This document shows, in pieces, positions 22,705-47,340 of a DNA stretch of 64,000 nt. The DNA comes from an uncultured Planctomycetales bacterium. GTDB lineage: Bacteria > Omnitrophota > Gorgyraeia > Zapsychrales > JANLHA01. Every line of letters starts with the position of its first letter. Within the stretch, counting starts at the first letter, position 1. The DNA lies in contig CAYYRJ010000010.1 of NCBI GenBank assembly GCA_964474085.1, forward strand, positions 12,606 to 76,605. Reading direction: 5' to 3'. The notes under the pieces were generated by a model. The model saw only the letters and a program-made list of their open reading frames with translations. It was not told where the DNA came from and searched no databases. The translations under genes were made by a program, and so were the position numbers.

Positions 22705-22728
22705 ACGGGTTTAAGAAAGCAGGATACT

Positions 22729-24111: not shown

Positions 24112-24126
24112 AGGAGTTTATTTAAC

Positions 24127-26820
24127 ATGGATACGAAAAGATTTTATAGCATGACCACAGAAGCGGTGGCTGGGGATTTGGGCAGTGATTTAAAAAATGG
24201 TTTAAGCCACGAGTTGGCTCAAAAAGTTTTTTCTGAAATTGGGGCCAATCAACTGACAGAGCAAAAAGGCACCAGCCCTTTTGTTCTTTTTCTCGGACAG
24301 TTTAAAGATTTCATTGTTTGGGTTTTAATCGGTGCAGCGTGCGTTTCAGGCTTTTTGCAGGAATGGATCGATGCATTGGCCATTGTCGCTATTGTAATTA
24401 TCAACGCGATTTTAGGATTCATTCAGGAATACCGTGCCGAGAAGTCGCTGGCTGCGCTTCGAAAATTATCTAATCCGACGGCCAAAGTCATTCGTGACGG
24501 TCAGCGCCAGATCATCGGCTCTTGTCATTTGGTTCCAGGAGATCTGATAGAAGTTGAGGCTGGCGACAGTATTCCCGCCGACAGCCGCTTGGTGTGGGTC
24601 AGTTCTAATTTTGGCGTGCAAGAAGCGAGTCTTACGGGTGAATCAACGCCGGTAACCAAGACGATACAAGCATTAGAGGAAAAAGATATCCCTTTGGCGG
24701 ATCGGGCGAACATGGTTTATATGGGCACGTCGGTTTCTTTTGGTAAAGCCCGGGCGATGGTTGTTTTTACAGGGATGCAAACTGAACTTGGAAAAATTGC
24801 AGGTTTAGTCCAGGCTGTCGGACATGAGACGACACCTTTGCAGAAAAAACTCGAAGAGTTCGGCAAGTGGATTGTGTATTTGTGTTTTGTGATGGTGGGA
24901 ATTGTTTTTCTTTTAGGCTGGCTGCGCGGCGGAAAAATTGTGGATGTCTTTTTAACGTCGGTGAGTTTGGCAGTTGCAGCAATCCCTGAGGGGTTGCCGG
25001 CCGTTGTCACGATTGCTTTAGCACTAGGCGTGCACCGGATGGTCAAGCGTCATGCGCTTATTCGTAAATTGCCGTCGGTCGAAACTTTGGGTTGTGCGAC
25101 GGTTATCTGTTCGGATAAGACAGGAACGCTGACAAAAAATGAAATGACCGTTCAGAGAGTTTTTGTGGGGCATAAAGTTTTTACGGTCACAGGTATCGGC
25201 TATGCCCCGACGGGTGAGTTTTTGGTGGATGGAAATCTCCAGAATGATAAGCAACCGGATTTGCAAAACATCCTTCTTGCGAGTGTTTTGTGCAACGGGG
25301 CGCAATTGGTCAACAATGCCGGTGTTTATAAAATTGTCGGCGACCCGACGGAAGGGGCGCTGTTGACTCTTGCGGCGAAGGCGGGCATTTTAAAGGAAAA
25401 AGCTGAAAGCGAATTTTTGTTTGTCGATGAAATTCCCTTTGATTCTGAACGCAAAAAAATGACGGTGATTCGCAAGCACAAAGATCATATTTTGGCCTTT
25501 GTCAAAGGGGCCCCGGATATTTTGATTGCTGATTGCGTCAATATTTATCACGATGGGACGGTCAGAAAGTTGACCGACGCGGACAAAGAAGCGATTGCAC
25601 GAGTCAACGATCAACTTGCTAACCAAGCGATGCGTGTTTTAGCTGTCGCAACTCGAGAGTTAGACAAGAATTTAGAAAAGTTTGATGCCAAGTTGACAGA
25701 AACTCAATTGACCTTTGTCGGTTTGGTGGCAATGATTGATCCGCCTCGTCCAGAAGTCAAAGAAGCCATCACGCACTGTAAAGCCGCCGGGATTAAGACA
25801 GTCATGATCACAGGTGATCACAAAAACACAGCTGTCGCTATTGCCAAGGCCCTGGGATTTTTTAATGAAAACTCTTTAGCCTTAAGTGGGGAAGAGCTCG
25901 ACCGTTTAAATGATGAAGAGCTTTTTAAGCAGGTTAAAAATATTTCTGTGTATGCGCGTGTGTCGCCGGAGCATAAGCTTAGGGTTGTGCGTGCGTGGCG
26001 CAAACATGGGGATATTGTGGCCATGACCGGCGATGGGGTCAACGATGCGCCGGCCGTTAAGGAAGCGGATATTGGGGTGGCCATGGGCATTACGGGGACC
26101 GATGTGACCAAGGAAGTTGCGGACATGATTGTTACGGACGACAATTTTGCATCCATTGTTTCAGCCGTTGAAGAAGGCAGAGGCATTTATGACAATATCA
26201 AAAAATTTATACAGTATTTGCTCTCTTGTAATGCCGGGGAAATTTTGGTCATGTTTGTTGCGACCCTAGTCGGATTGCCCGCACCGCTTTTGCCGATTCA
26301 TATTTTATGGGTCAATCTTGTTACCGACGGATTGCCCGCGCTGGCTTTGGGGGTGGATCCCATTGACCCGCATATTATGAAACGTTCTCCGCGGCCTGCG
26401 GATGAAAAGGTGGTCAGCAAGGCCCGTGCGATTGCGATTCTTGCGCAGGGGTCTTTTATTGCGTTTTGTACCCTTTTGGCGTTTGTGTTTGTTCTCTATA
26501 TAGAAAAGGAAGGTTTGGCCCGGGCGCGGACGGCCGCCTTTATTGTATTGGCTTGTTCGCAGTTATTTCACGCGTTTAATTGCCGCAGTACAACCGAGTC
26601 TTTATTTAGGCTTGGAATTTTGACGAACAAAAAATTAATTCTGGCGACGGGGATTTCTTTTATCCTTCAGATGGCGGTCGTTTATTTGCCGTTTTGTCAG
26701 AAAATATTTAAAACAGAAGCCCTTGGGCTATTCGACTGGATTTTGGTGCTTGTTATTTCTTCGTTCCCGCTGTGGGCTGTTGAGATACAGAAGGCTCTTA
26801 AGAGAAAAAATGCTGTTTAA
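24127..26820 (+). CDS. P2-type cation-transporting ATPase (Ca2+-ATPase family)
   Basis: [18 protein letters not shown] and GDGVNDAP motifs, ~10 TM helices. Confidence 0.85.
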
Positions 26821-26838
26821 AGAATCGGGAATGCCGCA

Positions 26839-27210
26839 ATGAAACAGATTAAAAAGTTTGTGTTGATGGGGGCAGGGTTTTTGTTTGTAGCCTTGGGTGT
26901 TATCGGCTTCTTTTTGCCGGTTATGCCTAGCGTTCCTTTTTTTATTCTTGCGTCGATTTGTTTTTCGAAAAGTTCTGAAAAGTTTCATGATATGTTGATG
27001 AATAATAAATGGGTTGGGCCCCAAATTAGAGACTATCATCAGAATAATGGAATTAAGATGAGCACAAAGATTTTTTTGATTGTTTTGCAATGGTCGGGGA
27101 TATTATTTACGTCGATATTCTTTGTTCATAACCTGTTTGGAAGAGTCCTTATGCTTTGTATTGCCGTGGGCGTGACCGTTTACATAGTCTCGTTAAAAAC
27201 TGCCAAATGA
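26839..27210 (+). CDS. DUF454/YbaN-family inner membrane protein
   Basis: GFFLPVMPSVPFFILASICFSKSSEKFH, then a xGPxIRDY motif. Confidence 0.75.
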   Translation: MKQIKKFVLMGAGFLFVALGVIGFFLPVMPSVPFFILASICFSKSSEKFHDMLMNNKWVGPQIRDYHQNNGIKMSTKIFLIVLQWSGILFTSIFFVHNLFGRVLMLCIAVGVTVYIVSLKTAK

Positions 27211-28076
27211 CAAAAAAACCTAAAACCAAGACAGCTATCAGCAGAGGCCGCCGGGGTCTTTCAAAAAAGAAACCACACGAAACCCGCAAGGCTGAGCGCG
27301 TGCGGTTGCAGGGGCGGGTTAATTTTTTAAGTGATTCGCGAGATCAGTTGGATTTGGAACTCAAAGAACAGCGCGAAGAGCTTTTGCATGTAACACGCGT
27401 TGGCAAAATGGCAGAATTTGTTTCATCTTTAGCGCATGAAATTAGCCAGCCGCTGACGGCTATTCTTTCCTATGCTCAAGGTGCCAAGCGCATGCTGGGT
27501 AATCGGGAACCAGAGATACAAGAAATTTTGCAGTACATAATTAATGATGACCAGCGGGCGGCTGAGGTTATAAGGCAGTTGCGTTCGCTGCTTAAGAAAA
27601 GTGAGCCGCAGATAACGCTTTTAGATATCAATGCGCTTATCAGCGAAACGGTTTTGCTGCTCTCTGCGGATGCGACAGCCAAAAAAAATATTCTTAAGCT
27701 AGAGCTTAGTGCAAATATCCCGATGATAAAAGGCGATCGGATACAGCTGCAGCAGGTGCTTATAAATCTTATTAGCAATAGTTTTGACGCCATGCACGGC
27801 AGTAAACAGTCACATCAGATGGTGATTCGCACTTTACGTAAAGATCCAGAAACAATTTTAGTCGGAGTGCAGGACACAGGCTGCGGTATTGCGCCAGAGA
27901 ACATGACTAAAATTTTTTCGCATTTTTTTACCAGTAAGCCCGACGGGTTGGGCATGGGCCTGTCAATCAGCCGTTCGATCATTGCTGAGCATGGCGGAAT
28001 TTTGGAAGCAAAGAATAATCCTGATTGCGGCGCGACTTTTTATTTTACTTTGCCGATTGTTAGCAAACAGCTATGA
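27207..28076 (+). CDS. soluble sensor histidine kinase (no TM or sensor domain)
   Basis: HisKA LAHEISQPL plus HATPase_c. Start overlaps the YbaN stop (ATGA). Confidence 0.75.
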   Translation: MTKKPKTKTAISRGRRGLSKKKPHETRKAERVRLQGRVNFLSDSRDQLDLELKEQREELLHVTRVGKMAEFVSSLAHEISQPLTAILSYAQGAKRMLGNREPEIQEILQYIINDDQRAAEVIRQLRSLLKKSEPQITLLDINALISETVLLLSADATAKKNILKLELSANIPMIKGDRIQLQQVLINLISNSFDAMHGSKQSHQMVIRTLRKDPETILVGVQDTGCGIAPENMTKIFSHFFTSKPDGLGMGLSISRSIIAEHGGILEAKNNPDCGATFYFTLPIVSKQL

Positions 28077-28699
28077 AGAGTACAAAACCTATCGTTTATG
28101 TCGTTGATGATGATCTTTCTGTTTGCCGCGCTTTATCTGTTTTGTTAACTGCCAACGGGTTTTGGGTTGAAACTTTTAATCGGCCAGAGGATTTTTTGGC
28201 TTTCAAGCATCCGCATTTGACCGCTTGCCTTGTTTTGGATATTCGTATGCCTAAATTCAGCGGCTTTGAGCTTAGCGAAATAATGGCTCAACGCAAAATT
28301 GAAGTGCCTGTCATTTTCATAACCGGTCACGGCGATATCCCGATGAGCGTCAAGGCGATGAAGGCTGGTGCTATTGATTTTTTGCCTAAGCCGTTTACCC
28401 AAAAACAATTGCTGGCCGCTATTACTTTGGCTTTGATTAGAAGTAAAAAACAAAATTTAGAAAAATCGCAAATTGCGAGGATCAAAGGCCGCATCAAAAC
28501 TTTGTCGGTCCGCGAATTGGAGGTTTTTCGTTTTGTTGCTTTAGGGATGTTAAGCAAGCAGATTGCCTTCAAGCGTGGAACGTCCCTGCAAACGATCAAA
28601 GTCCACCGCTCCCGCGTCATGCAAAAGATGGACGCAAAAACCGTCACCGAGCTTATTGCCTTTGCGCAAAAAGCCGGCATAGTCTCTCTGCCACAATAA
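28073..28699 (+). CDS. FixJ/LuxR-family response regulator (REC + HTH)
   Basis: VVDDD REC domain and a LuxR-type HTH. ATGA overlap with the HK gene. Confidence 0.8.
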   Translation: MKSTKPIVYVVDDDLSVCRALSVLLTANGFWVETFNRPEDFLAFKHPHLTACLVLDIRMPKFSGFELSEIMAQRKIEVPVIFITGHGDIPMSVKAMKAGAIDFLPKPFTQKQLLAAITLALIRSKKQNLEKSQIARIKGRIKTLSVRELEVFRFVALGMLSKQIAFKRGTSLQTIKVHRSRVMQKMDAKTVTELIAFAQKAGIVSLPQ

Positions 28700-28832
28700 T
28701 CTTTCAATAATAAAATTCATTCTCTCGTCGGGAAAGTCCGCTATTATACCTCGGTACAATTGCATCGCTTCGCCTCTTGCCTAAAATACAATCATGAATT
28801 TAGAAAACACACCATCTAAGGAGAAAAGCCCG

Positions 28833-29219
28833 ATGCTCTCAGATAAAAGAAAAGTCTTTATTGTTGACGATGACATTTCGGTTCGACGTGCCCTGGGGAT
28901 TCTTTTAAAGACTTATGAGTTTATTGTCGAAGCTTTTTCATCCGCTGAAGAGTTTTTTAGTGCTGTGCCCAACAGCGTTGCAGGCTGTTTACTCTTGGAT
29001 ATCCATATGCCCGGCCTAGACGGCTGGGGTACCCTTTCGCGGCTGCAAGCGTCAGGGTCAAAACGTTCGGTGATTATGATTACCGCCGAAAAGAATAATG
29101 GGGTAAGGGCCCGGGCGATGAGTGCAGGCGCCACGGGATTTTTACAAAAACCATTTAACGACCAAGAGTTGGTTGCTTTGATCAACCAGTCGTTTTTGGA
29201 AAGGAGGTCACCATGTTAA
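28833..29219 (+). CDS. single-domain response regulator (REC only)
   Basis: FIVDDD...[11 protein letters not shown]...FLQKPF. AAGGAG RBS places the start at 28833. Confidence 0.7.
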
Positions 29220-29377
29220 ATTGGGCAGTGACATTTTTTGTTATTGCTATTATCGCCGCGGTTTTGGGATTCGGCGGTATTGCAGGCTCGGCTATTGACA
29301 TTGCCAAGATTTTATTCTTTGTATTCTTGGTTTTGGCAGTGCTTTCATTCCTTTTAGGGAGAACAAGAACGTTGTAA
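29213..29377 (+). CDS. UPF0391 (DUF1328, YtjA-like) small membrane protein, 54 aa; not in ORF track
   Basis: [64 protein letters not shown] at 29201. Overlaps the REC gene stop. Confidence 0.7.
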
Positions 29378-29406
29378 TTCAAAAACAGGTTAACGAAAGG
29401 GATTAT

Positions 29407-30183
29407 ATGAATATGGATCATGTGAAAGTTTTGGTTGCATCTTTAGGGGTGGTTTTAATGATGGGTTCATCCGCGGGTGCTTCGCAAACGGATGAACGGA
29501 TTGAAGCCTCTGCCAAGAAGTCGTATGTTTTTAAGACGTATCTTAAAGACGACAGTATTAACACCCAGTCAAAAGATGGCGTGGTTACTTTGACGGGCAC
29601 GGTCGCCGAAGAATCACACAGATCATTGGCCCAGGAAACAGTGGCCAATTTACCCGGAGTTGTCAACGTCGATAACCAGTTAAAACTACAAGGGCAAGTG
29701 CCCGTTGAGAATTCGGATAATTGGATCGGGATGCAGGTTAAGTATTCGCTACTTTACAATCGCAATGTCAGCGGCATTAATACAAAAGTTGCTGTTGTTG
29801 ATGGCATTGTTACGTTAAAAGGCGAAGCCGAGAATCAAGCGCAGATTGACTTGGCTGGTGAATATGCCAAGGACATCAAAGGGGTCAAGGACGTCAAGAA
29901 TGAAATGACGATTGCTAAAGTTATCAGTGTCCCTAAGCAAACTTTAGCCGAAAAGATCGATGATGCTTCGATTACCGCGCAAATAAAGATGGCGCTTTTA
30001 TCGCATCGCTCGACGAGTGCTTTTAAAACCGGCGTGGCGACTTTAAACGGGGAAGTTACTTTGACCGGCAAAGCCGACAATGCCGCTGGAAAAGATATCG
30101 CCAGCAAACTTGCCAATGATGTTTATGGCGTGACAAAAGTGGTCAATAACATGACTATTGAAGATGTTTTGTCAAAAAAATAG
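29407..30183 (+). CDS. periplasmic BON-domain protein (OsmY-like, three BON repeats)
   Basis: Signal peptide plus three repeats of GVVTLTG...A...PGV..V.N.L. Confidence 0.8.
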   Translation: MNMDHVKVLVASLGVVLMMGSSAGASQTDERIEASAKKSYVFKTYLKDDSINTQSKDGVVTLTGTVAEESHRSLAQETVANLPGVVNVDNQLKLQGQVPVENSDNWIGMQVKYSLLYNRNVSGINTKVAVVDGIVTLKGEAENQAQIDLAGEYAKDIKGVKDVKNEMTIAKVISVPKQTLAEKIDDASITAQIKMALLSHRSTSAFKTGVATLNGEVTLTGKADNAAGKDIASKLANDVYGVTKVVNNMTIEDVLSKK

Positions 30184-30195
30184 GTGTTTAGAAAA

Positions 30196-30240
30196 GGCCG
30201 GTTGGTGCTTTAAGTTAAACGCACCAGCCGGTGTTTCTTG
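30196..30240 (+). terminator. rho-independent terminator
   Basis: Stem ccggttggtgc / gcaccagccgg (one G-U pair), followed by tgtttctt. Confidence 0.4.
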
Positions 30241-30276
30241 AGGATAATTCTAAAATTACGATAAAAGGGGGAAGAT

Positions 30277-30417
30277 ATGAAAAAGAATTTAATGTTGATT
30301 TTTACCGCTGTGTTTTTAACAACGATGATCGCAGGTTGCAATATGTTTAAAGGCGCTGGAAAAGACATGGAAAACGCCGGCAAAGGGATTCAAAAAACAG
30401 TGGACCGTAATGATTAA
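30277..30417 (+). CDS. entericidin-like small lipoprotein, 46 aa; not in ORF track
   Basis: MKKNLMLIFTAVFLTTMIAGCNMFKGAGKDMENAGKGIQKTVDRND, with a lipobox and a glycine-rich amphipathic tail. RBS aaaggggg. Confidence 0.65.
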   Translation: MKKNLMLIFTAVFLTTMIAGCNMFKGAGKDMENAGKGIQKTVDRND

Positions 30418-30420
30418 ACG

Positions 30421-30609
30421 TTGTTTTTGGCATTTGCGCAAGCAGGAGGCATTATTAAAAAATTGGTCGTTTCTCTAAAGGGAAGAAAATGTAAATATCC
30501 AAGATGCAAGCACATCTTAAGTATTTATAACCATGAAATTTATTGTCACGTTCATGCCGCCAGTCTGGAGGACCGAAAAGGGGGGCAAGGGGTATGCGCG
30601 GGGATTTAA
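30421..30609 (+). CDS. putative small zinc-ribbon protein (start uncertain)
   Basis: C-KYPR-C ... C-HVH spacing suggests a metal ligand set. Overlaps the GtrA start. No clean RBS. Confidence 0.25.
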   Translation: MFLAFAQAGGIIKKLVVSLKGRKCKYPRCKHILSIYNHEIYCHVHAASLEDRKGGQGVCAGI

Positions 30610-30977
30610 AAGAAATCTTGCGTTTTTCAATGGCCGGCGCTTTAGCCGGTTGTGTCGACTTAAGCGTTTATTTTCTTTTGATCCCTTTCGTATCTTTTAA
30701 CATTTCTAAAGCGATTTCTTTTACCTGCGCCGGAATTATCGCGTATTTGCTAAATAAGTTTTGGATATTTAAAAGTAAGATGTCTGTTTCCTATCAAGAA
30801 ATTGGGCGCTATATTCTCGTCAATCTTTTAGCTTTGGTGATTAATATTTTGACTAATCAGGGCATTTTAAAACTCTGGCCTTCGTCTTTTCTTTTAGCTT
30901 GGAGCATCGCTTCAATAGCTACCGGTTTGGTGACTTTTTTGGGCTTTAAATGGTGGGTTTTTCGTTATCCGAAGTAA
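30594..30977 (+). CDS. GtrA-family membrane protein
   Basis: 127 aa with 4 TM helices and the GtrA-like pattern FxxxGxxxxxxNxxLxxxxxF...KWWVFR. Confidence 0.7.
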   Translation: MRGDLKEILRFSMAGALAGCVDLSVYFLLIPFVSFNISKAISFTCAGIIAYLLNKFWIFKSKMSVSYQEIGRYILVNLLALVINILTNQGILKLWPSSFLLAWSIASIATGLVTFLGFKWWVFRYPK

Positions 30978-31044
30978 TGCGTATAGAAAGCCTCTGGTCA
31001 GGGAAGTATAATAAACTCAGATAAAAACAAAATTGAGGTTTGCC

Positions 31045-33315
31045 ATGTGGTGGAAATGGTTGCCGTGGAAATTTCTTGTTCGTCAGGCAGCGCGCCGGCA
31101 GGGGTTTTTAGACCCGATTAAACTGCTTTCGCAATTGCAGAATTTTGCCCAGCCCTCTGAAGTTGCCGCCCCGACGGAGTTATTGCGTTCCGGCGTTGTT
31201 CTTCACGCGCGGGGCTTGATGAACAGTTTGGCGATTCAGCATAATTTAGACTGGGTTTGGCCGTATTGGGTCGAATGCCAATATGATCCGCTTAACAGAG
31301 CGTTTATTCCCAGATCGTTTTCTTTAACACAAATTAATCTTACACATCGAAATTGGACGGCTTTAGGCGTTCCTGACGGTGTCGAGTTTCCGCTGGTTGA
31401 CCCCCGAGGGCTTTTGACGCCGTTTTATGATAGCTGGTCGATCGATGTTTGGATTATCCCCCAAACTGGGCAGCCGCTTTTTCCTTCGCGCTGTCCGACG
31501 GTATCCCAAAAATTGATCATAAAAGACAATCTTTGCGTCACAACAGAATCAAGTCTTGATTCTCTAAAATTGCAATTAAAGGCCAAGGTCATTGGCAGCG
31601 CGCAAACGCCGGTCTGCCAGCTAAAAATTTCAGCATCATCGTCGGTCAAAGCGCGGCTGGTTGTTTCTCTAAGACCGTATAATCCAGAAGGGGTCAGCTT
31701 TATCAATACGATAGCGATGATGGAAGATTCTTTGGGATGGAAAGTTAACGGCGAGCATTCGATCTATTTTGATAAAAAGCCGCACCAATGTATTTTTTGT
31801 AATTATCAACAGGGGGATGTTTATAGCCGTTTGTCTTTCCCTGAGCCTGAACATGAAATTTCCTGTCACGTCGGCATGGCCACTGCGGCGGCGACTTACA
31901 CATTATCTGAGGGAGAGATGCAAGAAATTACGGTTTTAATCCCATTGTCAAAACACCCTTTTAAAAAAGAAAATTCCAGTCACGATGAAAAAACAGCCGA
32001 TTCTTTATGGGAAAAAAGTTTAGAAGGCGCCTGCCGTTTGCAAATTCCCGACGAGCATTTTATGTTCCTTTATCAGGCGGCGCTTAAGACGATGGTTTTG
32101 CATTCCCCTCGCGAAGTTTATCCGGGGCCGTTTATTTATCGGCGGTTTTGGTTTCGTGACGCCGCTTTTATTTTGCACGCGCTTCTGGCGGTCGGATTAA
32201 AAGACCGCGTCAAACGCGCCTTGGATTGTTTTCGCGCACGCCAGACGAATCAAGGGTATTTTCTTTCGCAAGAAGGCGAATGGGATTCCAACGGTCAAGC
32301 GCTTTGGATTATCGAGCAGTATTGCCGGATGAGTGGAAATCCGCCGGCAGAACAATGGGAAAACTCGATTAAAAAGGCAGGCGAATGGATTTGCAAAAAG
32401 TGTTTGCCTGAGGATTTGCCTTCTGCGCACGCCGGTCTTTTGCCGTCGGGCTTTAGCGCTGAACATTTGGGACCCAACGATTTTTATTATTGGGATGATT
32501 TTTGGGGTGTCTCGGGGTTAAAGGCTGCAGCTTTTTTGTGTGAAAAAAACAAGAGCGCAAAATTGTCGATCAAGTTTGAAAAAAAAGCATTCGCTTTATT
32601 AGAAAGCATTATGGAAAGTTTAAAAAAAGTCCAAGCGCGTTTGCACCGACCGGCAATCCCGGCTTCGCCGTATCGACGTCTTGATACAGGCGCTATCGGC
32701 TCTTTGGTGGCGGGGTATCCGCTTCGAATTTTTAAACCCGATGATCAAAGGCTTTTAGACACGGCAGATTTTTTAATGAAAAACTGTTTGGTCGCTGGCG
32801 GATTTTTTCATGACATGACCCACTCTGGGATCAATCCTTATCTGACGCTGCATTTGGCCCAAGTGCTTTTGCGCGCCGGTGATGAACGTTATTTTCCGCT
32901 GATGACGGCGGTCGCAAATCTTGCTTCCCCGACGGGACAATGGCCCGAGTCAGTGCATCCGCAAACCTTAGGCGGCTGCATGGGAGACGGGCAGCATGTT
33001 TGGGCAGCGGCTGAATGGGTGCTTATGGTCCGCAACTGTTTTGTCCGTGAAGAAGAGCAAAGTCTTATTTTGTGCAGCGGGATCTCTAAAGAGTGGCTTT
33101 TACAAAAACAAACAATGAGCTTTGGCCCGGCCCCGACGAGTTTTGGCGACATTCAAGTTTTTATAAAAGTTAATGAAGAAAATATTGTTGTTGAGTGGAA
33201 AGGCCAATGGTTTGGCCAAGCGCCGTCGATTGAAATTCGTTTGCCGGGGTTTGCGCCAGAGCGTGTTTTGCCGGGAGTCGATCAGCTGGTTTTAAAACTT
33301 GAGGCAAAGTCATGA
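31045..33315 (+). CDS. large six-hairpin (alpha/alpha)6 glycosidase-like protein (GDE_C / GH63 / GH116-like; family unresolved)
   Basis: 756 aa with an N-terminal beta-rich region, then FIYRRFWFRDAAFILHALLAVG and QGYFLSQEGEWDSNGQALWI resembling the W-x-RD...Q..G motifs of amylo-alpha-1,6-glucosidase-type barrels. ATG at 31045 after GAGG. Confidence 0.45.
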   Translation: MWWKWLPWKFLVRQAARRQGFLDPIKLLSQLQNFAQPSEVAAPTELLRSGVVLHARGLMNSLAIQHNLDWVWPYWVECQYDPLNRAFIPRSFSLTQINLTHRNWTALGVPDGVEFPLVDPRGLLTPFYDSWSIDVWIIPQTGQPLFPSRCPTVSQKLIIKDNLCVTTESSLDSLKLQLKAKVIGSAQTPVCQLKISASSSVKARLVVSLRPYNPEGVSFINTIAMMEDSLGWKVNGEHSIYFDKKPHQCIFCNYQQGDVYSRLSFPEPEHEISCHVGMATAAATYTLSEGEMQEITVLIPLSKHPFKKENSSHDEKTADSLWEKSLEGACRLQIPDEHFMFLYQAALKTMVLHSPREVYPGPFIYRRFWFRDAAFILHALLAVGLKDRVKRALDCFRARQTNQGYFLSQEGEWDSNGQALWIIEQYCRMSGNPPAEQWENSIKKAGEWICKKCLPEDLPSAHAGLLPSGFSAEHLGPNDFYYWDDFWGVSGLKAAAFLCEKNKSAKLSIKFEKKAFALLESIMESLKKVQARLHRPAIPASPYRRLDTGAIGSLVAGYPLRIFKPDDQRLLDTADFLMKNCLVAGGFFHDMTHSGINPYLTLHLAQVLLRAGDERYFPLMTAVANLASPTGQWPESVHPQTLGGCMGDGQHVWAAAEWVLMVRNCFVREEEQSLILCSGISKEWLLQKQTMSFGPAPTSFGDIQVFIKVNEENIVVEWKGQWFGQAPSIEIRLPGFAPERVLPGVDQLVLKLEAKS

Positions 33316-34778
33316 CCCAAAGTCTTCTTACAGGATTTAGAAATTTCTTGGTACTAAGCACTGGTCAATTTATTGATCCGCACGAGATTGAAGCGCTTTA
33401 TACCCAATCGGCTCCTGTCAAAGAAATGTGTGTTTTTGCGATTTTAGGGATGAAAGGTCATAAGAAATCAAAAGTGCTCTGGGCGGTCATTGTGCCGGAT
33501 TTAGAGCAGTTTAGAGAATTTGATGAAGTTAATTTGCGTGCTGTGATTGGAGAGCGTTTTGATAATGCGGCGCAGGCACTGCCGGTTTACAAAAGGCTTA
33601 AAGGTTTTACCCTGACCCTCAAAGATTTGCCGCATACGTATTTGGGAGCTGTGGACACAAGTCAGGTCAAAAAAATATTTGAACCTCGTGTGTTGGCCGG
33701 ACTAGAAGGAAGTATTTCTGGTGGTGGCAAGATTTCACCAGAGGATTTGCTTTTACGTGAATCATCGACGGGAAAGAAAGTCCTGGAATGTTTAATGCTG
33801 CAGAGCAAAGCAAATCAGCCGATCACTCTTGAAGATTCTCTGGAGTTGGATTTAGGGATTGATTCCTTAGGGCGTATTGAGCTTGCTTCGCGTTTAGCAC
33901 TTGGGTTTAGCGCTGATATTAAGCCGGAGGTTATTTCAAAATCGTTTAGGATCAAGGCGCTTATTGTAAGTATTAACGAAGCCTTAAAAGATGCAAAAGC
34001 TATTCTTCCGTCAGATGAAGGCTTGACTTTGGGAGCGGATTATTGGGAAGAACATCTAAATGTCCTGCCTAAAAAAGAAACGCTGGATATGCTCGAGCTG
34101 GGAACAGGCTATTTTGCGTGGCTGTTTCGGTTTGTCATAACAGCTATTAATTTTGTGATTTTTAAATTATTTTTTCAGATTAAAGGGCAAGGTGCTGAGT
34201 ATGTACCGAAAGAAGGCGCTTTTATTCTTTACGGCAATCATACAAGTTTTTTGGACGGTTCGGCGATTGCCGCTTGCCTGCCACGTCGACGCGTGTTTCA
34301 ACTCTTTTATTTTGTTTTTGGCCCGTATTTTTTTAGACCTTTCGAAAAATCCAGTGTTTTGCGCAACTTAGTCAAGATGGGACGCTTTATTCCGTTTGAT
34401 TATTCAACGCATTTTTTGGAGGCTTTGCGCAGTAGTTATTATGTTTTACAGCAGGGAAAGGGCTTATGTTTTTTCCCGGAAGGCTTGCGAAGTACGACGG
34501 GAGAAATCGGTGAATTTAGAAAGGGTTTTGGCGTTTTGGCCAAAGAAACGGGTGCTAAACTTGTTCCGGTCGCGATAGACGGAGCGCACGAGGCTTGGAG
34601 CAGCACGGCCAAGTTCCCGCGCTGTTATCCTATTCGTGTGCGTTTTGGAAAACCCCTTTTACCGGCGGATTTAGAAAAGCAAGGGTTTGCGATGGGTGCC
34701 AAAAACAGTTATGAGGCTATTTGTATTGCCGCGCGTGCGGCGCTTATCGAATTAAAAAACGATAAAGGTAAGATATGA
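33312..34778 (+). CDS. tri-partite protein: C-terminal remnant of an acyl-CoA/ACP synthetase, an acyl-carrier domain and an LPLAT (PlsC-like) acyltransferase
   Basis: Residues 1-120 match a FACL-type C-terminus (EMCVFAI, KVLWAVIVPDLEQ, LPVYKRLKGFTLT). The DLGIDSLGRIELA phosphopantetheine site is at ~180. NHTSFLD (HxxxxD) and FPEGLRS acyltransferase motifs follow. ATGA overlap with the upstream gene. Confidence 0.65.
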   Translation: MTQSLLTGFRNFLVLSTGQFIDPHEIEALYTQSAPVKEMCVFAILGMKGHKKSKVLWAVIVPDLEQFREFDEVNLRAVIGERFDNAAQALPVYKRLKGFTLTLKDLPHTYLGAVDTSQVKKIFEPRVLAGLEGSISGGGKISPEDLLLRESSTGKKVLECLMLQSKANQPITLEDSLELDLGIDSLGRIELASRLALGFSADIKPEVISKSFRIKALIVSINEALKDAKAILPSDEGLTLGADYWEEHLNVLPKKETLDMLELGTGYFAWLFRFVITAINFVIFKLFFQIKGQGAEYVPKEGAFILYGNHTSFLDGSAIAACLPRRRVFQLFYFVFGPYFFRPFEKSSVLRNLVKMGRFIPFDYSTHFLEALRSSYYVLQQGKGLCFFPEGLRSTTGEIGEFRKGFGVLAKETGAKLVPVAIDGAHEAWSSTAKFPRCYPIRVRFGKPLLPADLEKQGFAMGAKNSYEAICIAARAALIELKNDKGKI

Positions 34779-37700
34779 AAATTCTTATGATGACAAATTC
34801 CTATGCGCCTATGGTCGGCGGCATCGAGGAGTCGATACGCTCGTTTAGTGCCGAGTTTGAAAAATTAGGGCATGAGGTTATGATCGTGGCCCCCGAGTGT
34901 GAGGGAGCGCCGTTAGACGAGGTAGGCGTTATCCGTCTTCGGGCGATACAAAATTTTAATAATTCGGATTTTTCTATCGCACTGCCTATGTCGAGTCTTT
35001 TGCCAGAACTGATCAAAACTTTTAAGCCGGACATTATTCATAGTCATTATCCCTTTTGGATGGGCAGCATTGCGCTTCGTTTAAGCGGACAGTTTAAGAT
35101 TCCGCTGGTCTTTACGTATCACACGATGTTTGAACAGCACATGCATTATTTACCGGTTCAAAATGAGGGCGTGCAGAGGTTTATCGTCGAGATTTTTGCC
35201 GGTTACGCAAACTTGGCAAACCAAGTCGTGGTTCCCAGTGAAAGTGTCCGCGTTATTCTTTTAGAGCGCGGGGTAAAGACCCCCATCGCTGTTGTGCCAA
35301 CGGGAGTTGATTTACAGAGGTTTTCGCGCGGGGACGGCAAGGTGGTCCGTCACCGGCTGGGGATTGCGCAGGATGCGCCTTTGATCGGTTATGTCGGTCG
35401 TCTGGCCTTGGAAAAAAATCTTGAATTTTTAAGCTCTGCTGTGGCCGCGTATTTAAAACAAGAAACGAGTGCGCATTTTGTCGTCGGTGGCGATGGCCCG
35501 CTCAAAGAACTTATCCAAAAGATTTTTGACGAGCAAGGAGTCGGTAAGCGTCTGCATTTTGCCGGTGTGCTTAAAGGCCAAGATTTAGTTGACTGTTATC
35601 AGGCGATGAATGTGTTTGCCTTTGCTTCATTAAGCGAAACGCAGGGCATTGTTTTGGTCGAAGCAATGGCCGCCGGCGCTGCGGTTGTGGCTTTGGATGC
35701 GCCCGGCGTGCGTGAAGTGCTCAAAGATGGTTACAATGGCCGTCTTGTTTTTGGCGAAAATAAAAATAATTTTGTTGAGGCGCTTTCGTGGTGTTTGAAG
35801 TTGCCGGCCAATGAGTTTGTGCGTATTAAAGAAAACGCAAAAACAACGAGCAAAGAATTTTCAGTCAACAGTTGCGCACTGCGTATGCTTAAAACTTACG
35901 ACGAGGTTTTGGTCAAAGAGTATTCGTCGCCCGATTATAAGAATAGTCCGTGGGATGCTTTGGCCGGCCGGCTTAAAAACGAGTGGGACATGTTTAAAAA
36001 TGTGTTGGAATCCGGTACGAGTGCTATTGTCGACACAAGCAGTTTGCCAAAGCCGCTTGTCAAAAAAGCCAGGGGATTGTTTCTTCGTCTGCCGAGGCTT
36101 TTGTCGTTAAGCGAATGGTCCGCTAAATTGTTGCGTTTGCCCCGCACGCAAGATACGCAAACGGATCCCGGCCTTGTGCTTATTCAGATTGACGGGTTTT
36201 CGGGCGGTCAGTTTAAGAAAGCTATTGAACAGGGAAAAATGCCTTTTCTCAAAGGTCTGCTGCAAAAACAATACTACACGCTTTATCCGCAGTATCCGGG
36301 TTTGCCGTCGAGCACGCCGTCAGTGCAGGGGGAATTGTTTTATGGGGTCAAACAAATTGTCCCTGCTTTTGCTTTTTGGGACCGCGAAACGCAAAAAATT
36401 TTTCGTATGTATGACGGCCCGGCGGTTTTGGAAATTGAGCGGCGTCTGGCCGCTCAAGGCCAAGGTCTTTTGGCAGAAGGGAGCTCTTACTCTAATATAT
36501 ATTCAGGCGGCGCTATGCAATCGCATTTTTGTGCCACATCTTTGGGGTGGAGCAAAATTTGGAAAGAAATTAACCCACTGAACTTTTTTATTCTGATCTT
36601 GACGCATTTTCCTTCTTTTGTCCGCATGATGGCCTTAACGGCATGGGAAATGATTTTAGGCGCTGTTGATTTTGGCTGGGGGATACTAAGGGGTGAGAAT
36701 TTTAAAAATGAATTTAAATTTATTTACCTGCGAGCGTTAATTTGTGTTCTTTTGCGTGAGCTTGTGACCTTAGGCGTCAAAATCGATATCGTGCGCGGCT
36801 TGCCGATTATTCATGTCAACCTTTTAGGCTACGATGAATTAGCCCACCATAGCGGTCCGTCTTCCACGTCGGCACATTGGTCTTTAAAAGGGATTGACCG
36901 CGCTATCGAAAAAATTTATGGCAAAGCTCTTCATTCTTCGGCGCGCAGTTACGATGTTTGGATTTATTCGGATCATGGGCAAGAGGACACCGTTTCATAC
37001 GCGGCTAAGTACAAGCGCAGTATCGAAGAAGCGGTTGCCGAAGTTTATAAAGAATTTGACGCAACGGCCCAATTTTCGGTTGTTGATAAAACCAGCGAAC
37101 AGTTGCAGCGTGCGCGTTTTTTAGGATTTTCATTTTTGGAAAAGTTTTTTAGCGGTGTTTCTTTTCCTAAAGAAAATCTTTTAGAAAACAAGCTGATTGT
37201 CACGGCCATTGGCCCGACGGGAAATATTTATTTGCCCCGACAGATGAGCTTGGAGGAAAAGTGCCGTTTTGCGCAATGCTTGGTCGCAAAGGCTTATATT
37301 CCTGTGGTCATGTTTGTAGACGAACAAGGAAAAGTCCGCGTGTGGACTGACCAAGGCGAATTTTGTTTGCCGCAAGATGCCAAAACAATTCTGGGTGCGG
37401 ACCATCCCTATTTGGCCGCGGTTACTGAGGATATTATTGCCCTTTGTCAGCACAAGAATGCAGGAGACTTTACGTTGATGGGATATCAGCCGAACAAAAA
37501 ACCGATGAGCTTTCCGCTTGAAAACGGTTCGCACGCCGGACCGGCCCCAAAGGAAACAGATGGCTTTGCACTTTTGCCCAAGGACATTATTCCCCGACAA
37601 AGAACCCGGGAGTATATTACCCCGATGGATTTGCGTTTTGCCGCTTTACGGTTCTTGAAGCGTTCTGTCCCGAAAGAAAACAAGTCCTATCCAGAAATTA

Positions 37701-38467
37701 TATTTCCTCAAAAGAGTGCTGTGGACAAAGAAACTATTCGCGTGATGACTTATAATGTCCACTCCTGTATCGGCATGGACGGCAAAATTTCGCCAGAGCG
37801 CATTGCGCGTGTCATCGGACGCCATCAGCCGGATATTGTAGCGCTCCAAGAGTTGGACTTAGGCCGCAAGCGCACTGGGCAAATCGATCAGCCGCAGCTT
37901 ATTGCCAAGGAATTAGAAATGCATTATCACTTTCATCCGTCAGTCATTGTCGACGAAGAACATTACGGCAATGCGATTCTTAGCCGATATCCGCTGGATC
38001 TTGTCCGTGGTGGACATTTGCCGGAAATTGCCCGGCATCGGATGGTCGAACGCCGCGGCGCGATTTGGGCAACAGTCAATATCGGTAAAACAAGGATTAA
38101 TTTCTTTAATACGCATTTTGGTCTTCTGCCGCGTGAGGCGATTTTGCAGGCGCAGGCACTGCTGGGGGCAGAGTGGATTTCTCATTTCGTCTGTCAGGGG
38201 CCGGTTATTTTGTGCGGAGACTTTAATTCTTTACCTAATTCGCAGGTCTGCCGCGATATTAAAAAAGTCTTGCGCGATGCCCAAGGAGAATTGGACAATC
38301 ATCGTCCTAAATCGACGTGGTTTAGCCATTATCCGATCGGCCGGATTGATCATGTCTTTGTCAGTCCGGATATTGAAGTGACTCATGTTGAAGTTTCCCG
38401 CAGCGATTTAGACAAGCTCGCTTCAGATCACCTGCCGCTTATTGTGGACATTAAATTAAAGAAATAG
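34775..38467 (+). CDS. 1230-aa fusion: GT4 glycosyltransferase + AlkP-superfamily phosphodiesterase (NPP/PglZ-like) + endonuclease/exonuclease/phosphatase (EEP) domain
   Basis: GT4 region: ETQGIVLVEAMAAGAAVVALDAPG. Middle region: IQIDGFSGGQF...MPFLKGL...PSSTPS...YSDHG. C-terminal region: MTYNVHS...ALQELD...GDFNS...IDHVFVS. ATGA overlap with the upstream gene. Confidence 0.7.
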   Translation: MKILMMTNSYAPMVGGIEESIRSFSAEFEKLGHEVMIVAPECEGAPLDEVGVIRLRAIQNFNNSDFSIALPMSSLLPELIKTFKPDIIHSHYPFWMGSIALRLSGQFKIPLVFTYHTMFEQHMHYLPVQNEGVQRFIVEIFAGYANLANQVVVPSESVRVILLERGVKTPIAVVPTGVDLQRFSRGDGKVVRHRLGIAQDAPLIGYVGRLALEKNLEFLSSAVAAYLKQETSAHFVVGGDGPLKELIQKIFDEQGVGKRLHFAGVLKGQDLVDCYQAMNVFAFASLSETQGIVLVEAMAAGAAVVALDAPGVREVLKDGYNGRLVFGENKNNFVEALSWCLKLPANEFVRIKENAKTTSKEFSVNSCALRMLKTYDEVLVKEYSSPDYKNSPWDALAGRLKNEWDMFKNVLESGTSAIVDTSSLPKPLVKKARGLFLRLPRLLSLSEWSAKLLRLPRTQDTQTDPGLVLIQIDGFSGGQFKKAIEQGKMPFLKGLLQKQYYTLYPQYPGLPSSTPSVQGELFYGVKQIVPAFAFWDRETQKIFRMYDGPAVLEIERRLAAQGQGLLAEGSSYSNIYSGGAMQSHFCATSLGWSKIWKEINPLNFFILILTHFPSFVRMMALTAWEMILGAVDFGWGILRGENFKNEFKFIYLRALICVLLRELVTLGVKIDIVRGLPIIHVNLLGYDELAHHSGPSSTSAHWSLKGIDRAIEKIYGKALHSSARSYDVWIYSDHGQEDTVSYAAKYKRSIEEAVAEVYKEFDATAQFSVVDKTSEQLQRARFLGFSFLEKFFSGVSFPKENLLENKLIVTAIGPTGNIYLPRQMSLEEKCRFAQCLVAKAYIPVVMFVDEQGKVRVWTDQGEFCLPQDAKTILGADHPYLAAVTEDIIALCQHKNAGDFTLMGYQPNKKPMSFPLENGSHAGPAPKETDGFALLPKDIIPRQRTREYITPMDLRFAALRFLKRSVPKENKSYPEIIFPQKSAVDKETIRVMTYNVHSCIGMDGKISPERIARVIGRHQPDIVALQELDLGRKRTGQIDQPQLIAKELEMHYHFHPSVIVDEEHYGNAILSRYPLDLVRGGHLPEIARHRMVERRGAIWATVNIGKTRINFFNTHFGLLPREAILQAQALLGAEWISHFVCQGPVILCGDFNSLPNSQVCRDIKKVLRDAQGELDNHRPKSTWFSHYPIGRIDHVFVSPDIEVTHVEVSRSDLDKLASDHLPLIVDIKLKK

Positions 38468-38540
38468 TTCTTTTAAAGGAATATTGTGATGTAAAATTCT
38501 TTTCGTATTCTAAACTTTCATAAATCGTAGTGAGGTTTTT

Positions 38541-40184
38541 ATGCGTATTTTGATTGTAGGCGGTGTTGCCGGCGGAGCTTCTGCAGCGGCGCGGGCGCGC
38601 AGGTTGTCGGAGGATGCAGAGATCATTATTTTTGAACGCACCGAGCATGTGTCTTTTGCTAACTGCGGCTTGCCGTATCATGTCGGTGGGGTCATTAAGG
38701 AAAGGGCAAAGCTTTTGGTCCAAACTCCCGAGTCATTGTATCGGCGCTTTCGTATCACAACAAAAGTTAAGACGGAAGTTTTGTCGATTGACCGTTCGCA
38801 AAAAAATATTACCGTCAAAAATTTGGTCACAGGACAAGAGTCCAAAGAGGCGTATGATTTTTTGATTTTAAGTCCCGGCGCGGATCCGATCAAGCCGCCT
38901 ATGCCTGGCTTAGGTTTACCGCAGGTTTTGACTTTGCGCAATTTAGCGGACATGGATAAGATTATCGCGAAGATTGCGCAGGGTAAGGCCCAAAAAGCGC
39001 TGGTCGTTGGCGGAGGATACATTGGTTTGGAAATGACTGAGGCTTTGTGCGAACGTGGACTTCGGGTGACGATCGTTGAGCTTTCGTCGCAGGTGATGGG
39101 GCCCTGCGATCCTGAGATGGCGTACTATTTACATCAAGAGCTGACTAAACATGGGGTTGAATTAAAATTTGGTGTTTCGGTCAAAAGTTTTTCTCAGGCT
39201 TCTGATGGTGTTTTGGCAGAATTAAGCGATGGGCAGTCGATCACATGTGATTTTGTTATTTTAGCTATTGGCGTTAAGCCCGACGTAAGTCTAGCCAAAA
39301 ACGCAGGGTTAACAATCGGTGAGCGCGGCGGCATTGTTGTCAATGACAAGATGCAGACAAATGACCCGAGCATTTTTGCCGTCGGGGATGCGATTGAAGT
39401 TGAGGAATTTGTGACTGGCACAAAAGCTTTGATCCCTTTGGCGGGGCCGGCTAACCGGCAAGGTCGTATTGCGTCAGATAATATTTTTGGCCGCAACGTG
39501 ATTTACAAAAAGACTCAAGGCACAGCAATTTGCAAATTGTTTGATCTGACGATCGGCATGACGGGAGTTAATGAAAAGATTTTAAAACGGATGAATATGC
39601 TTTACGAAAAAGTTTATATTCACCCTAATCATCATGCCAGCTATTATCCGGGCGCTGTGCCAATGAGCATGAAGTTACTTTTTGATCCTAAGAGCGGAAA
39701 AATTTTAGGAGCTCAAGCTGTCGCAAGCCAAGGCGTCGATAAGCGCATTGATGTTTTGGCGGTGGCTCTGCGGGCGGGGATGACGGTTTATGATTTAGAA
39801 AATTTAGAGCTCTGTTATGCTCCGCCGTATGGCGCGGCCAAAGATCCGGTTAACTTTTTGGGATTTGTTGCGGCCAATTTGCTTAAAGGCGATTTTAAAC
39901 AGTGTCACAGCGACGATATAAAATCATTAAAGCCGGACCAAATTATTTTAGATGTCAGGTCAGCCAAAGAAGCGCAAGCCGGCATGATTGCAGGGGCCGT
40001 GAATATTCCCGTCGATGATTTGAGGGACAAGTTGCGAGAGCTTTCAAAGGACATAGAATATTTAACGTATTGTCAGGTGGGTTTGCGCGGCTATCTGGCG
40101 TGCCGGATACTGATGCAAAACGGCTTTAAATGCCGAAACCTCTCCGGCGGGTATCAAACGTATAAATCGACTTTAGGTGATTGA
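38541..40184 (+). CDS. CoA-disulfide reductase / NADH-dependent persulfide reductase with C-terminal rhodanese domain
   Basis: FAD-binding VGGVAGGASAA, redox-active SFANCGLPY, and a rhodanese active site YCQVGLRG. Confidence 0.85.
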   Translation: MRILIVGGVAGGASAAARARRLSEDAEIIIFERTEHVSFANCGLPYHVGGVIKERAKLLVQTPESLYRRFRITTKVKTEVLSIDRSQKNITVKNLVTGQESKEAYDFLILSPGADPIKPPMPGLGLPQVLTLRNLADMDKIIAKIAQGKAQKALVVGGGYIGLEMTEALCERGLRVTIVELSSQVMGPCDPEMAYYLHQELTKHGVELKFGVSVKSFSQASDGVLAELSDGQSITCDFVILAIGVKPDVSLAKNAGLTIGERGGIVVNDKMQTNDPSIFAVGDAIEVEEFVTGTKALIPLAGPANRQGRIASDNIFGRNVIYKKTQGTAICKLFDLTIGMTGVNEKILKRMNMLYEKVYIHPNHHASYYPGAVPMSMKLLFDPKSGKILGAQAVASQGVDKRIDVLAVALRAGMTVYDLENLELCYAPPYGAAKDPVNFLGFVAANLLKGDFKQCHSDDIKSLKPDQIILDVRSAKEAQAGMIAGAVNIPVDDLRDKLRELSKDIEYLTYCQVGLRGYLACRILMQNGFKCRNLSGGYQTYKSTLGD

Positions 40185-40185
40185 T

Positions 40186-40599
40186 ATGAATAGCGTTTAT
40201 TTGTGCGGATTTTTAGGCGGGATGCTCATTGGCGCTGCTGCTGTTTTGTTGTTTTGGTTTAACGGCCGGATTATGGGAGTCAGCGCTATCAGCTCAAAAC
40301 TATTGGGTAAGCCGGACAAAGATTTTTTGTGGCGTTTGGCTTTTGTCTTGGGGCTTGTCGTGGGGGGATTTTTATATCAGCTTAAATTTCCGGTTGTTGC
40401 CGTTATCAAAGCCGATGTTGGGACTTTGATCATCGCTGGATTGCTTGTGGGATTTGGAACCGTGTTGGGCAACGGCTGCACGAGCGGGCATGGGATTTGT
40501 GGCATGGCAAGGTTCTCTAAGCGTTCAATCGCCGCAACCCTTAGCTTTATGGCAGCCGGGATTTTGACAGTGGCCATTAAGAATATGTTGGGAGGTTAA
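40186..40599 (+). CDS. YeeE/YedE sulfur-transport family protein, half-size (part 1)
   Basis: GNGCTSGHG motif. Alternative GTG start at 40177. Confidence 0.75.
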   Translation: MNSVYLCGFLGGMLIGAAAVLLFWFNGRIMGVSAISSKLLGKPDKDFLWRLAFVLGLVVGGFLYQLKFPVVAVIKADVGTLIIAGLLVGFGTVLGNGCTSGHGICGMARFSKRSIAATLSFMAAGILTVAIKNMLGG

Positions 40600-41004
40600 A
40601 TGACAAGTATCGTTGCTTTTTTTTGCGGGCTTATCATGTCTTTGGGCTTGATTATTTCTGGCATGGTCAATCCGCAAAAGGTGATTGGGTTTTTGGATAT
40701 GTTTAGACATTTTGACCCGACCCTGGCCTTTGTTATGGCGGGCGCTTTGCTGGTTGCGGCCGTCGGGTTTCGTCTCGTCGGATGCGGTAAGCCGTTATTG
40801 TGTGAGTGTTTTGATTTACCTAAAAAAAATAAAATTGATGCCCCGCTGATTATAGGCGCCGTAATTTTTGGTGTTGGCTGGGGCTTGGCCGGGTTTTGTC
40901 CGGGGCCGGCGATTGTTGGCGTAGGGTTAGGGTTACCTTACGCTGGTGTTTTTGTGCTGGCTATGCTTTTGGGGATGTTTTTTGCCAGAAAGGTTTTAAA
41001 ATGA
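40600..41004 (+). CDS. YeeE/YedE sulfur-transport family protein, half-size (part 2)
   Basis: Homologous half encoded as a separate gene. GGAGG RBS. Confidence 0.75.
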   Translation: MTSIVAFFCGLIMSLGLIISGMVNPQKVIGFLDMFRHFDPTLAFVMAGALLVAAVGFRLVGCGKPLLCECFDLPKKNKIDAPLIIGAVIFGVGWGLAGFCPGPAIVGVGLGLPYAGVFVLAMLLGMFFARKVLK

Positions 41005-42872: not shown

Positions 42873-42874
42873 AG

Positions 42875-43363: not shown

Positions 43364-43373
43364 GATGATGTTT

Positions 43374-43461
43374 GAGTTTAGCTGATTTGGAAATCCTTTT
43401 TAGGCGAATTGCGCCATAGAGGCGCGAAACAATTGAGCCTAAAAGGATTTTCAAATCGGCA
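43374..43461. repeat. ~90-bp palindromic repeat element, copy A
   Basis: gtttagctgatttgg...aggcgaattgcgccatagaggcgcgaaacaattgagcc...tcaaatcggc. The outer stem is ~22 bp. The whole element is approximately the reverse complement of copy B. Confidence 0.6.
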
Positions 43462-43498
43462 CAGATACAAATTTCTATATGGCATTAATTAAAAAGTT

Positions 43499-46170: not shown

Positions 46171-46195
46171 TTAACGCTCCTGTTGAAAAACACGA

Positions 46196-47324: not shown

Positions 47325-47340
47325 TAGGCTGGAGCAAACG

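Follow-up and report, generated by a model that had tools for sequence, protein, structure and literature searches.

An Omnitrophota acyltransferase that carries the lid of an acyl-activating enzyme and an acyl carrier domain, and no adenylation core

How can the C-terminal lid of an acyl-activating enzyme persist in a gene that has no adenylation core for the lid to close upon? This question is raised by a gene, here called T, on a stretch of 64,000 nucleotides (hereafter the window; positions 12,606 to 76,605 of contig CAYYRJ010000010.1, assembly GCA_964474085.1) from an uncultured bacterium of the Omnitrophota. T occupies 33312..34778 on the + strand and encodes 488 aa, in which an ANL-type C-terminal lid (residues 1-130), an acyl carrier (residues ~147-223) and a PlsC-type acyltransferase (residues 290-422) follow one another. 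In ANL enzymes the lid swings between two poses on the core, and we know of no ANL lid with a life of its own. The explanation toward which we lean modestly, taken as a whole, is that T derives specifically within Omnitrophota from widespread ElbD-like proteins of ~900 aa, that its adenylation core has been lost, that its lid has been repurposed, and that its carrier would be loaded in trans. Architecture, homology, conservation pattern and synteny of T are the demonstrated part of this account, while the lipid acceptor, the new role of the lid and the enzyme that would load the carrier are what we infer from them.

Is the N-terminal part of T really such a lid? The subdomain extends over 33312..33701 (+ strand); translation starts four residues ahead of the L/I-T-G-R of motif A8 and about 10 ahead of the inter-domain hinge of the full-length relatives. 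Evidence from the single sequence is weak: over residues 25-109 the Pfam model AMP-binding_C scores 18.4 bits (E 0.0042), short of its cut-off of 24.5 bits, and NCBIfam models of fatty acid--CoA ligases, MenE and carboxylic acid reductase (CAR) match residues ~6-125 weakly with their extreme C-termini. It is at the level of the family that the evidence becomes decisive. A profile of the first 132 residues, built from truncated sequences together with the lid regions of full-length relatives, found 87 chains in the PDB at E of at most 0.01, all of them ANL enzymes and always matched in their last ~110 residues, for instance 404-514 of 517 in FadD13 and 394-500 of 504 in 4-chlorobenzoate ligase. 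When the profile was made from the truncated sequences only, a single ANL match was significant (E 1.6e-4), and several others, in the correct register, were marginal. The fold predicted by AlphaFold for residues 1-132 (predicted local distance difference test, pLDDT, 79.6), from an alignment that was mixed and included lid regions of full-length relatives, was compared with the PDB by Foldseek; ANL enzymes made up all of the top 50 matches, whose E values go down to 2e-7 and whose query-normalised template modelling (TM) scores are 0.55-0.70, among them the CAR A-PCP structure 5mss (E 2e-7), FadD10, Thermus LC-FACS, MatB and ACSM2A. A model of the whole T protein, made from a shallow alignment of 40 sequences, reached a pLDDT of 59, with the lid below 50, and was left out of the fold search. 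Judging from the family profiles and the predicted fold, residues 1-130 are a genuine ANL lid. Its class is the FACL type (long-chain acyl-CoA synthetase), as the preliminary description of this DNA had proposed, with an extra helical insert as in the ElbD-like relatives; profiles, the profile-profile alignment described below and the fold comparison all bear that proposal out, and neither the PDB matches of the profile nor the top 50 of the fold comparison contain anything other than ANL enzymes.

Does T begin where it appears to begin? An in-frame TGA at 33300-33302 stands four codons 5' of the ATG, and therefore a hidden N-terminal extension is impossible. The sequence GAGG is found 7 nt ahead of the ATG, which overlaps the stop codon of the upstream open reading frame (ORF), 31033..33315, by 4 nt in the form ATGA, exactly the junction noted before. 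At its 3' end, too, T shares an ATGA with its neighbour, the stop codon of T overlapping the start codon of 34775..38467.

The remaining domains are plain. The acyl carrier (phosphopantetheine-binding) domain lies at 33750..33980 (+ strand), with Ser185 at 33864-33866 in the motif DSL; Pfam PP-binding (PF00550) matches residues 166-208 with 22.4 bits against a cut-off of 20.8, and many structures of acyl carrier proteins (ACPs) in the PDB match residues 147-223. Directly before the acyltransferase there is a hydrophobic segment (34104..34181, + strand; residues 265-290, TGYFAWLFRFVITAINFVIFKLFFQI), which from its composition is probably a membrane-associated helix; a helix is predicted at residues 267-288 in the whole-T model. 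The PlsC/LPLAT-type acyltransferase domain at 34179..34577 (+ strand) matches Pfam PF01553 with E 1.2e-14 and 54.7 bits against a cut-off of 23, carries the HX4D motif as HTSFLD (34239-34256) and FPEGLR at 34473-34490, and finds a PlsC, 5kym, in the PDB with E 5.6e-13. In NCBIfam it matches best the acyltransferase regions of acyl-ACP--phospholipid O-acyltransferases, and by sequence it is closest to the Aas-type domains that reacylate lysophospholipids.

Then, where is the core? That the lid is kept without its AMP-binding core of ~450 aa, as described earlier, is confirmed for T and for the window: a six-frame tblastn of all 64 kb with six cores found none (best E 0.053), a Pfam scan of all 23 window ORFs of at least 330 aa and 13 shorter ones detected no adenylation core, and PF00501 is absent from T and from every listed truncated homologue, while it is present in the ~900-aa relatives. 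The tblastn match at E 0.053 falls in the 3' part of the upstream gene, here called X; a core remnant hidden there was rejected, as hhalign of X against the full-length family gave a probability of 0.1%. The suggestion that the core had been replaced, by the upstream gene, is not sustained either, since X has no profile similarity to the core and full-length relatives stand in unrelated contexts. Outside the window, tblastn found no core in the flanks of the homologous loci L001-L004, and in L010-L044 the only core matches are three full-length paralogues, to which we return below. A core-only gene was also sought with the core of P0122, the closest full-length relative, and none was evident among the 120 best matches. 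Most of these carry their own lid (AMP-binding_C or _C_3), and for many of ~550-690 aa PF00501 is the only domain listed; the shortest ones, P0289 (428 aa, with a partial label) and P0395 (400 aa), are on contigs of less than 3 kb. Stand-alone fatty acid--CoA ligases of ~500-515 aa with an Omnitrophota label are also among these matches.

From what kind of protein did T come? A profile of 40 T homologues, run against a set of 1.8 billion cluster representatives, returned one representative for the family of T itself, followed by ~100 proteins of 870-940 aa to which residues 5-484 of the query align in a single stretch, at positions ~430-905, with E from 1e-127 to 1e-51. In these proteins PF00501 AMP-binding (~8-407) is followed by AMP-binding_C or _C_3, PP-binding and Acyltransferase. 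When the two families were aligned with hhalign, the probability was 100% and E 6e-121 over 474 columns (7-490 against 439-912), with 39% identity. Proteins like the ~900-aa relatives are known from other phyla as ElbD-like homologues that lack the FAR1 domain (PMC9131029). P0264 (1449 aa), also among the profile matches, has the exact architecture of ElbD, and only in relatives of its type is a FAR1-like reductase present. Full-length relatives of other lineages lie in unrelated housekeeping gene contexts.

Is T only a decaying fragment of such a gene, or an artefact of assembly at 33.2-33.4 kb? Both had been suspected, the former in the description of a decayed gene. In favor of them it can be said that the lid of the single sequence is below the Pfam threshold and that motif A10 is degenerate in the window. 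However, a homologue search with T returned more than 120 proteins of 64-72% identity from metagenome-assembled genomes (MAGs) of Omnitrophota, almost all of 484-492 aa; their N-termini coincide, column identity averages 78%, and there is no variation in the carrier serine, HX4D or FPEGxR. When species-representative genomes were scanned, 35 loci came up, every one of them in Omnitrophota, although some third-party annotation (TPA) records bear the title 'uncultured Planctomycetales'. Start, length, gene order and the junction itself are repeated in ~40 independent assemblies, and therefore misassembly is excluded. With the ATGA coupling of T to both neighbours added, these comparative data refute the idea of a pseudogene or artefact, to which we give practically no credence, and by sequence T is a working variant conserved across Omnitrophota, not a broken gene.

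If T is a working gene, which parts of it are under constraint? In an alignment of 119 truncated and 94 full-length sequences, 22 columns are at least 95% conserved among the full-length proteins, 14 in the carrier and acyltransferase and eight in the lid. All of the 14 stay at 99-100% in the truncated family: D184 and S185 of DSL (both 100% in the 119 truncated sequences), N309, H310 and D315 around HX4D, F388-P-E-G-x-R393, F402, G405, P419 and G424. Among the lid columns, by contrast, four of the eight are clearly relaxed. Hinge G7 goes from 96% to 29% (as Ser) and hinge R8 from 100% to 50%, while in motif A10 T109 goes from 100% to 52% and the catalytic K113 from 99% to 73%. The other columns tell a different story: P23 and E27 are at 99% or more in the truncated family, R116 is conserved too, and G18 is slightly relaxed (87%). 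In the window the remnant of A8 (33324..33392, + strand; residues 5-27, LLTGFRNFLVLSTGQFIDPHEIE) has TGF for the hinge TGR of its relatives and keeps G18, P23 and E27. The remnant of A10 (33627..33659, + strand; residues 106-116, LPHTYLGAVDT) does not fit the consensus PxTxxGKxxR: Ala stands at the Lys position, and Thr at that of the conserved Arg, which makes T of the window one of only two among the 119 truncated sequences to have lost R116.

The lid has not simply been set free, since positions that vary among the full-length proteins have become invariant in the truncated family (W57, L64, F67, R68, N74, L75, E81, D84, N85, T100, R126 and G130). Mean column entropy in the truncated family is 0.89 bits in the lid and 0.67 bits in the rest, the lid still being low in absolute terms; in the full-length proteins the lid, with 1.90 bits against 2.32, is the better-conserved part. 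From the alignment and the modelled helices (64-70 and 75-87), this is a shift of rate in the lid, in which the constraint of adenylation appears to be released and a new constraint laid on a helical surface. Because hinge and A10 catalytic positions are relaxed, the lid seems no longer to take part in adenylation, and that of T is, from its sequence, probably non-catalytic. Purifying selection would then keep it for some structural or docking role.

Such a loss of the core may not be unique. P0225 (469 aa; ENA sample ERZ27297570), internal to a contig of 22.9 kb, is a separate lid-ACP-acyltransferase truncation that has lost the hinge GR, has Thr in place of the A10 Lys and keeps the DSL serine, and its gene context differs from that of T, with PilZ, FeeM-like and response-regulator genes following. 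As read from its sequence, P0225 suggests that core loss happened more than once. Profile matches of 500-690 aa were also considered as further truncations and mostly rejected, as they start inside the core at an internal Met or carry fragments of it; probably they are partial genes at contig edges, P0225 being the only one internal to its contig.

How, then, might T work? In the explanation preferred here, the core of ~430 aa would have been lost so that the gene now begins a few residues ahead of the hinge, while carrier and acyltransferase would have remained fully functional. An acyl chain would be held on the built-in phosphopantetheine arm at Ser185 and transferred by the HX4D acyltransferase to a lipid acceptor in the membrane, probably a lyso-glycerolipid or a glycolipid made or remodelled by the GtrA-X and GT4 proteins encoded next to T. 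As T would be unable to activate fatty acids itself, the carrier would have to be acylated in trans, and a complete adenylating enzyme probably does this; of the inferences that we can draw from sequence, it is the best supported. Loading in trans had been offered in the preliminary description as one of two possibilities; it is the part of that proposal that survives, and a paralogue just downstream in three loci lends it some support. The likeliest enzyme is a full-length ElbD-like paralogue that Omnitrophota also encode, and on sequence and position the operon-linked copy is the most likely candidate. Such a paralogue is on the same strand as T in three Omnitrophota loci: in L025 (13366..16116, 916 aa) it directly follows the GT4-hydrolase gene and overlaps its end, in L037 (13482..16202, 906 aa) it also directly follows the GT4-hydrolase gene, and in L044 (17277..20063, 928 aa) it is found four genes further on. 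The L025 paralogue has AMP-binding, AMP-binding_C, PP-binding and Acyltransferase by Pfam. A patatin-like phospholipase gene is next to the paralogue in L037 (17661..18911) and in L044 (16118..17362).

Several points weigh against this explanation. The paralogue is adjacent in only three of ~25 loci with enough flank, and it is absent from the 64-kb window. Among themselves the three paralogues share 73-85% identity, and with T only 36-40%; T is no closer to them than to P0122 (39-41%) and therefore represents an old lineage rather than a recent duplicate, and these identities give no sign of a recent partnership by duplication between T and the paralogue. The A10 Lys is still present in 73% of the truncated family, in which residual chemistry of the lid is possible. 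Finally, acyltransferase activity was undetected even for purified ElbD (PMC9131029).

Is an adenylating enzyme needed at all? It is possible, though we think it clearly less likely, that the carrier is loaded otherwise, via the machinery of fatty-acid synthesis or acyl transfer or by transfer of acyl-phosphopantetheine from acyl-CoA, or that the acyltransferase uses free acyl-ACP or acyl-CoA, with lid and carrier a mere structural or regulatory appendage. The acyltransferase of T is indeed a standard PlsC-type module, which normally takes soluble acyl-ACP or acyl-CoA, and most loci, the window included, have no adenylating gene nearby. An appendage, however, is hard to reconcile with D184 and S185 at 100% in 119 sequences and with a carrier as conserved as the catalytic domain; and in the parent family the carrier is taken as the acyl donor of the fused acyltransferase, from the architecture and from the ACS and ACP assays of ElbD (PMC9131029). 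Another thought starts from the lid itself. Might T be one part of a split ANL enzyme, its lid complementing a core-only gene elsewhere in the genome for both half-reactions? T starts almost at the inter-domain hinge, and the A8 hairpin residues G18, P23, E25 and E27 are conserved, as such a division would have it. Yet the A10 lysine is Ala in the window and lost in 27% of the family, hinge Gly-Arg and A10 Thr are relaxed, and no core-only gene was evident among the P0122-core matches described above, nor any core in the window or the L001-L004 flanks. With the Lys gone and no core-only gene evident among those matches, we regard a split enzyme as very improbable. Somewhat less doubtful, and still unlikely, is that lid and carrier of T serve the core of the full-length paralogue as a second, detachable C-terminal half: this core would make the acyl-adenylate with its own lid and then dock the lid-ACP of T in the thioester-forming pose, for which the conserved A8 hairpin would be needed and not the A10 lysine, and the carrier of T would be loaded. 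If this is true, a single activating core would feed two acyltransferases in a lipid-scavenging or glycolipid pathway, and there would be a natural trans-complementation between ANL subdomains.

What surrounds T in the genome? The order GtrA / X / T / GT4 is found in nearly all of ~40 further loci, the exceptions being L021, L033 and L047 without X and L014 without GT4. In the window the first gene of the cassette, 30543..30977 (+ strand), encodes a GtrA-family membrane protein (Pfam GtrA_DPMS_TM, E 2.3e-19), and X (31033..33315, + strand; 760 aa) stands directly upstream of T. GtrA and X are here separate genes 55 nt apart, whereas in most Omnitrophota they are fused, and forms of ~890 aa dominate the list of X homologues; these are 69-75% identical across Omnitrophota, and more than 4900 matches were returned. 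X is without a Pfam match, and searches of PDB sequences came back empty whether they used X alone or a profile; a weak and partial match to TIGR01577 (GH15-like; residues 369-614, E 3.5e-6) agrees to that extent with the glycosidase-like character once given to the upstream gene, for which Pfam and PDB offer nothing. In L021, L033 and L047 X is absent and GtrA is directly upstream of T, with a GH1 glycosidase gene immediately upstream of GtrA in L047; in L004/L041 a GH1 gene precedes a shortened call of X (334 aa), within DNA long enough for the full-length gene. From these arrangements, therefore, X is not strictly obligatory for T. Two X-T-GT4 copies, L019 and L020, are found in one MAG (PPR_0475, contigs JBFZAU010000130 and JBFZAU010000142), either by true duplication or by mixing of strains in the bin.

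The gene downstream of T (34775..38467, + strand; 1230 aa) combines, by Pfam and NCBIfam, a GT4 glycosyltransferase with a type I phosphodiesterase (PDE) and an EEP domain of the phosphatase/nuclease fold, and its GT4 domain is most like alpha-monoglucosyl-diacylglycerol synthase (E 5e-44). In nearly all loci the GT4 part is directly downstream of T, and in other Omnitrophota the slot is taken by GT4 alone (~440 aa) or by a GT4-alpha/beta hydrolase fusion (~700 aa); such variable lipase- or phosphodiesterase-like tails suggest remodelling of lipid head groups or acyl chains. Genes for MlaE/MlaF/MlaD transport and an auxiliary lipoprotein come after GT4 in L001-L003 (13483..16715) and L045 (13166..16431), directly in L045 and behind a gene of 192 aa without a Pfam match in L001-L003. 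PAP2 phosphatases and a diacylglycerol (DAG) kinase are encoded close by in L047, and a CDP-alcohol phosphatidyltransferase and a PDE/EEP gene upstream in L045. Because of these lipid-related neighbours (GT4, the hydrolase/PDE/EEP fusions, Mla, PAP2, DAG kinase and patatin), the cassette may well make or remodel a membrane glycolipid or glycerolipid, to which T would give a carrier-tethered acyl group.

Elsewhere in the window, a trehalose gene cluster occupies 4873..10918. It consists of genes for a GT20 trehalose-6-phosphate synthase with an N-terminal extension of ~300 aa (4873..7206), an MscS channel (7211..8308), a trehalose phosphatase (8292..9113) and a GH15/trehalase-like enzyme (9071..10918). 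The window has 43 ORFs that reach 150 aa. Some 37 of them lie on the + strand, and of the six on the - strand at least three overlap annotated genes of the + strand. Every 2-kb bin of 1..64000 shows a positive GC skew, and the cumulative skew climbs steadily. Skew and strand bias are consistent with one replication arm with strong co-orientation of genes.

Why should such a gene attract attention? Omnitrophota, uncultured and possibly host-dependent, would have kept a lid fused to carrier and acyltransferase long after the loss of the core, and the T family may be regarded as a natural experiment on non-catalytic roles of the lid, such as positioning of the carrier or docking of a partner. GtrA-X, T and GT4 would be a conserved and uncharacterised four-gene lipid or glycolipid cassette, a signature of Omnitrophota membranes. 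There is also a matter of annotation. For members of the T family JGI gives the label 'long-chain acyl-CoA synthetase', which is wrong for a core-less protein, and NCBI the label '1-acyl-sn-glycerol-3-phosphate acyltransferase'. ElbD homologues were counted by BLAST in 93 of 267 Omnitrophota MAGs (PMC11868695). Surveys of this kind may take truncated T genes as potential for ether lipids and inflate the counts of acyl-activating or ElbD-type genes in this phylum.

What is already known that resembles T? In E. coli Aas the acyltransferase precedes a complete synthetase, and the enzyme has no built-in carrier and uses free ACP. Aas and the MFS-fused acyl-[ACP]--phospholipid O-acyltransferases share with T a PlsC-type acyltransferase joined to ANL-derived sequence, and the job is likely alike, that is, reacylation of lyso-lipids from carrier-bound acyl groups. 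In T, however, the domain order is opposite, a carrier of its own is present and there is no core; its acyltransferase reaches 79.5 bits (E 1.3e-22) with NF006386 and 47.4 bits (E 8.9e-13) with NF005959, whose cut-offs are 1221 and 886. To call T Aas-like is therefore imprecise, and its parents are ElbD-like. A second resemblance is to the adenylation-carrier didomains (Acore-Asub-PCP) of CAR and nonribosomal peptide synthetases (NRPSs), in which, as in T, the carrier directly follows the lid; in structure, the lid model matches best the CAR A and A-PCP entries 5mss, 5mst and 6oz1. To our knowledge CAR and NRPS enzymes of this kind always keep the core, and their lid lysine is essential for adenylation, whereas the lid of T is orphaned and its downstream partner is an acyltransferase.

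It is to the ElbD-like proteins that T is closest. In the summary of Lorenzen et al. 2014 given in PMC9131029, ElbD of M. xanthus has the order FAR / ACS / ACP / AGPAT-like acyltransferase, and in vitro assays demonstrated its activities as ACS and ACP; most ElbD-like homologues outside myxobacteria are without the FAR1 domain (PMC9131029). Lid, carrier and acyltransferase of T are colinear with theirs, with the same carrier serine, HX4D and FPEGxR. T differs in having neither the ~430-aa AMP-binding core nor the FAR domain of ElbD proper, in its relaxed hinge and A10 positions, and in its place in a dedicated GtrA-X / GT4 cassette rather than in an elb cluster or a housekeeping context. A split of elbD is known, and it falls between the reductase and adenylation domains (bioRxiv 10.64898/2026.06.23.733905), while T is cut at the adenylation hinge; in the literature we found no description of a cut at this hinge that leaves lid-ACP-acyltransferase, nor work specific to Omnitrophota acyltransferases. 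T is not a categorically new system, and what is new relative to the ElbD-like and Aas-like fusions is its core-less arrangement, cut at the hinge.

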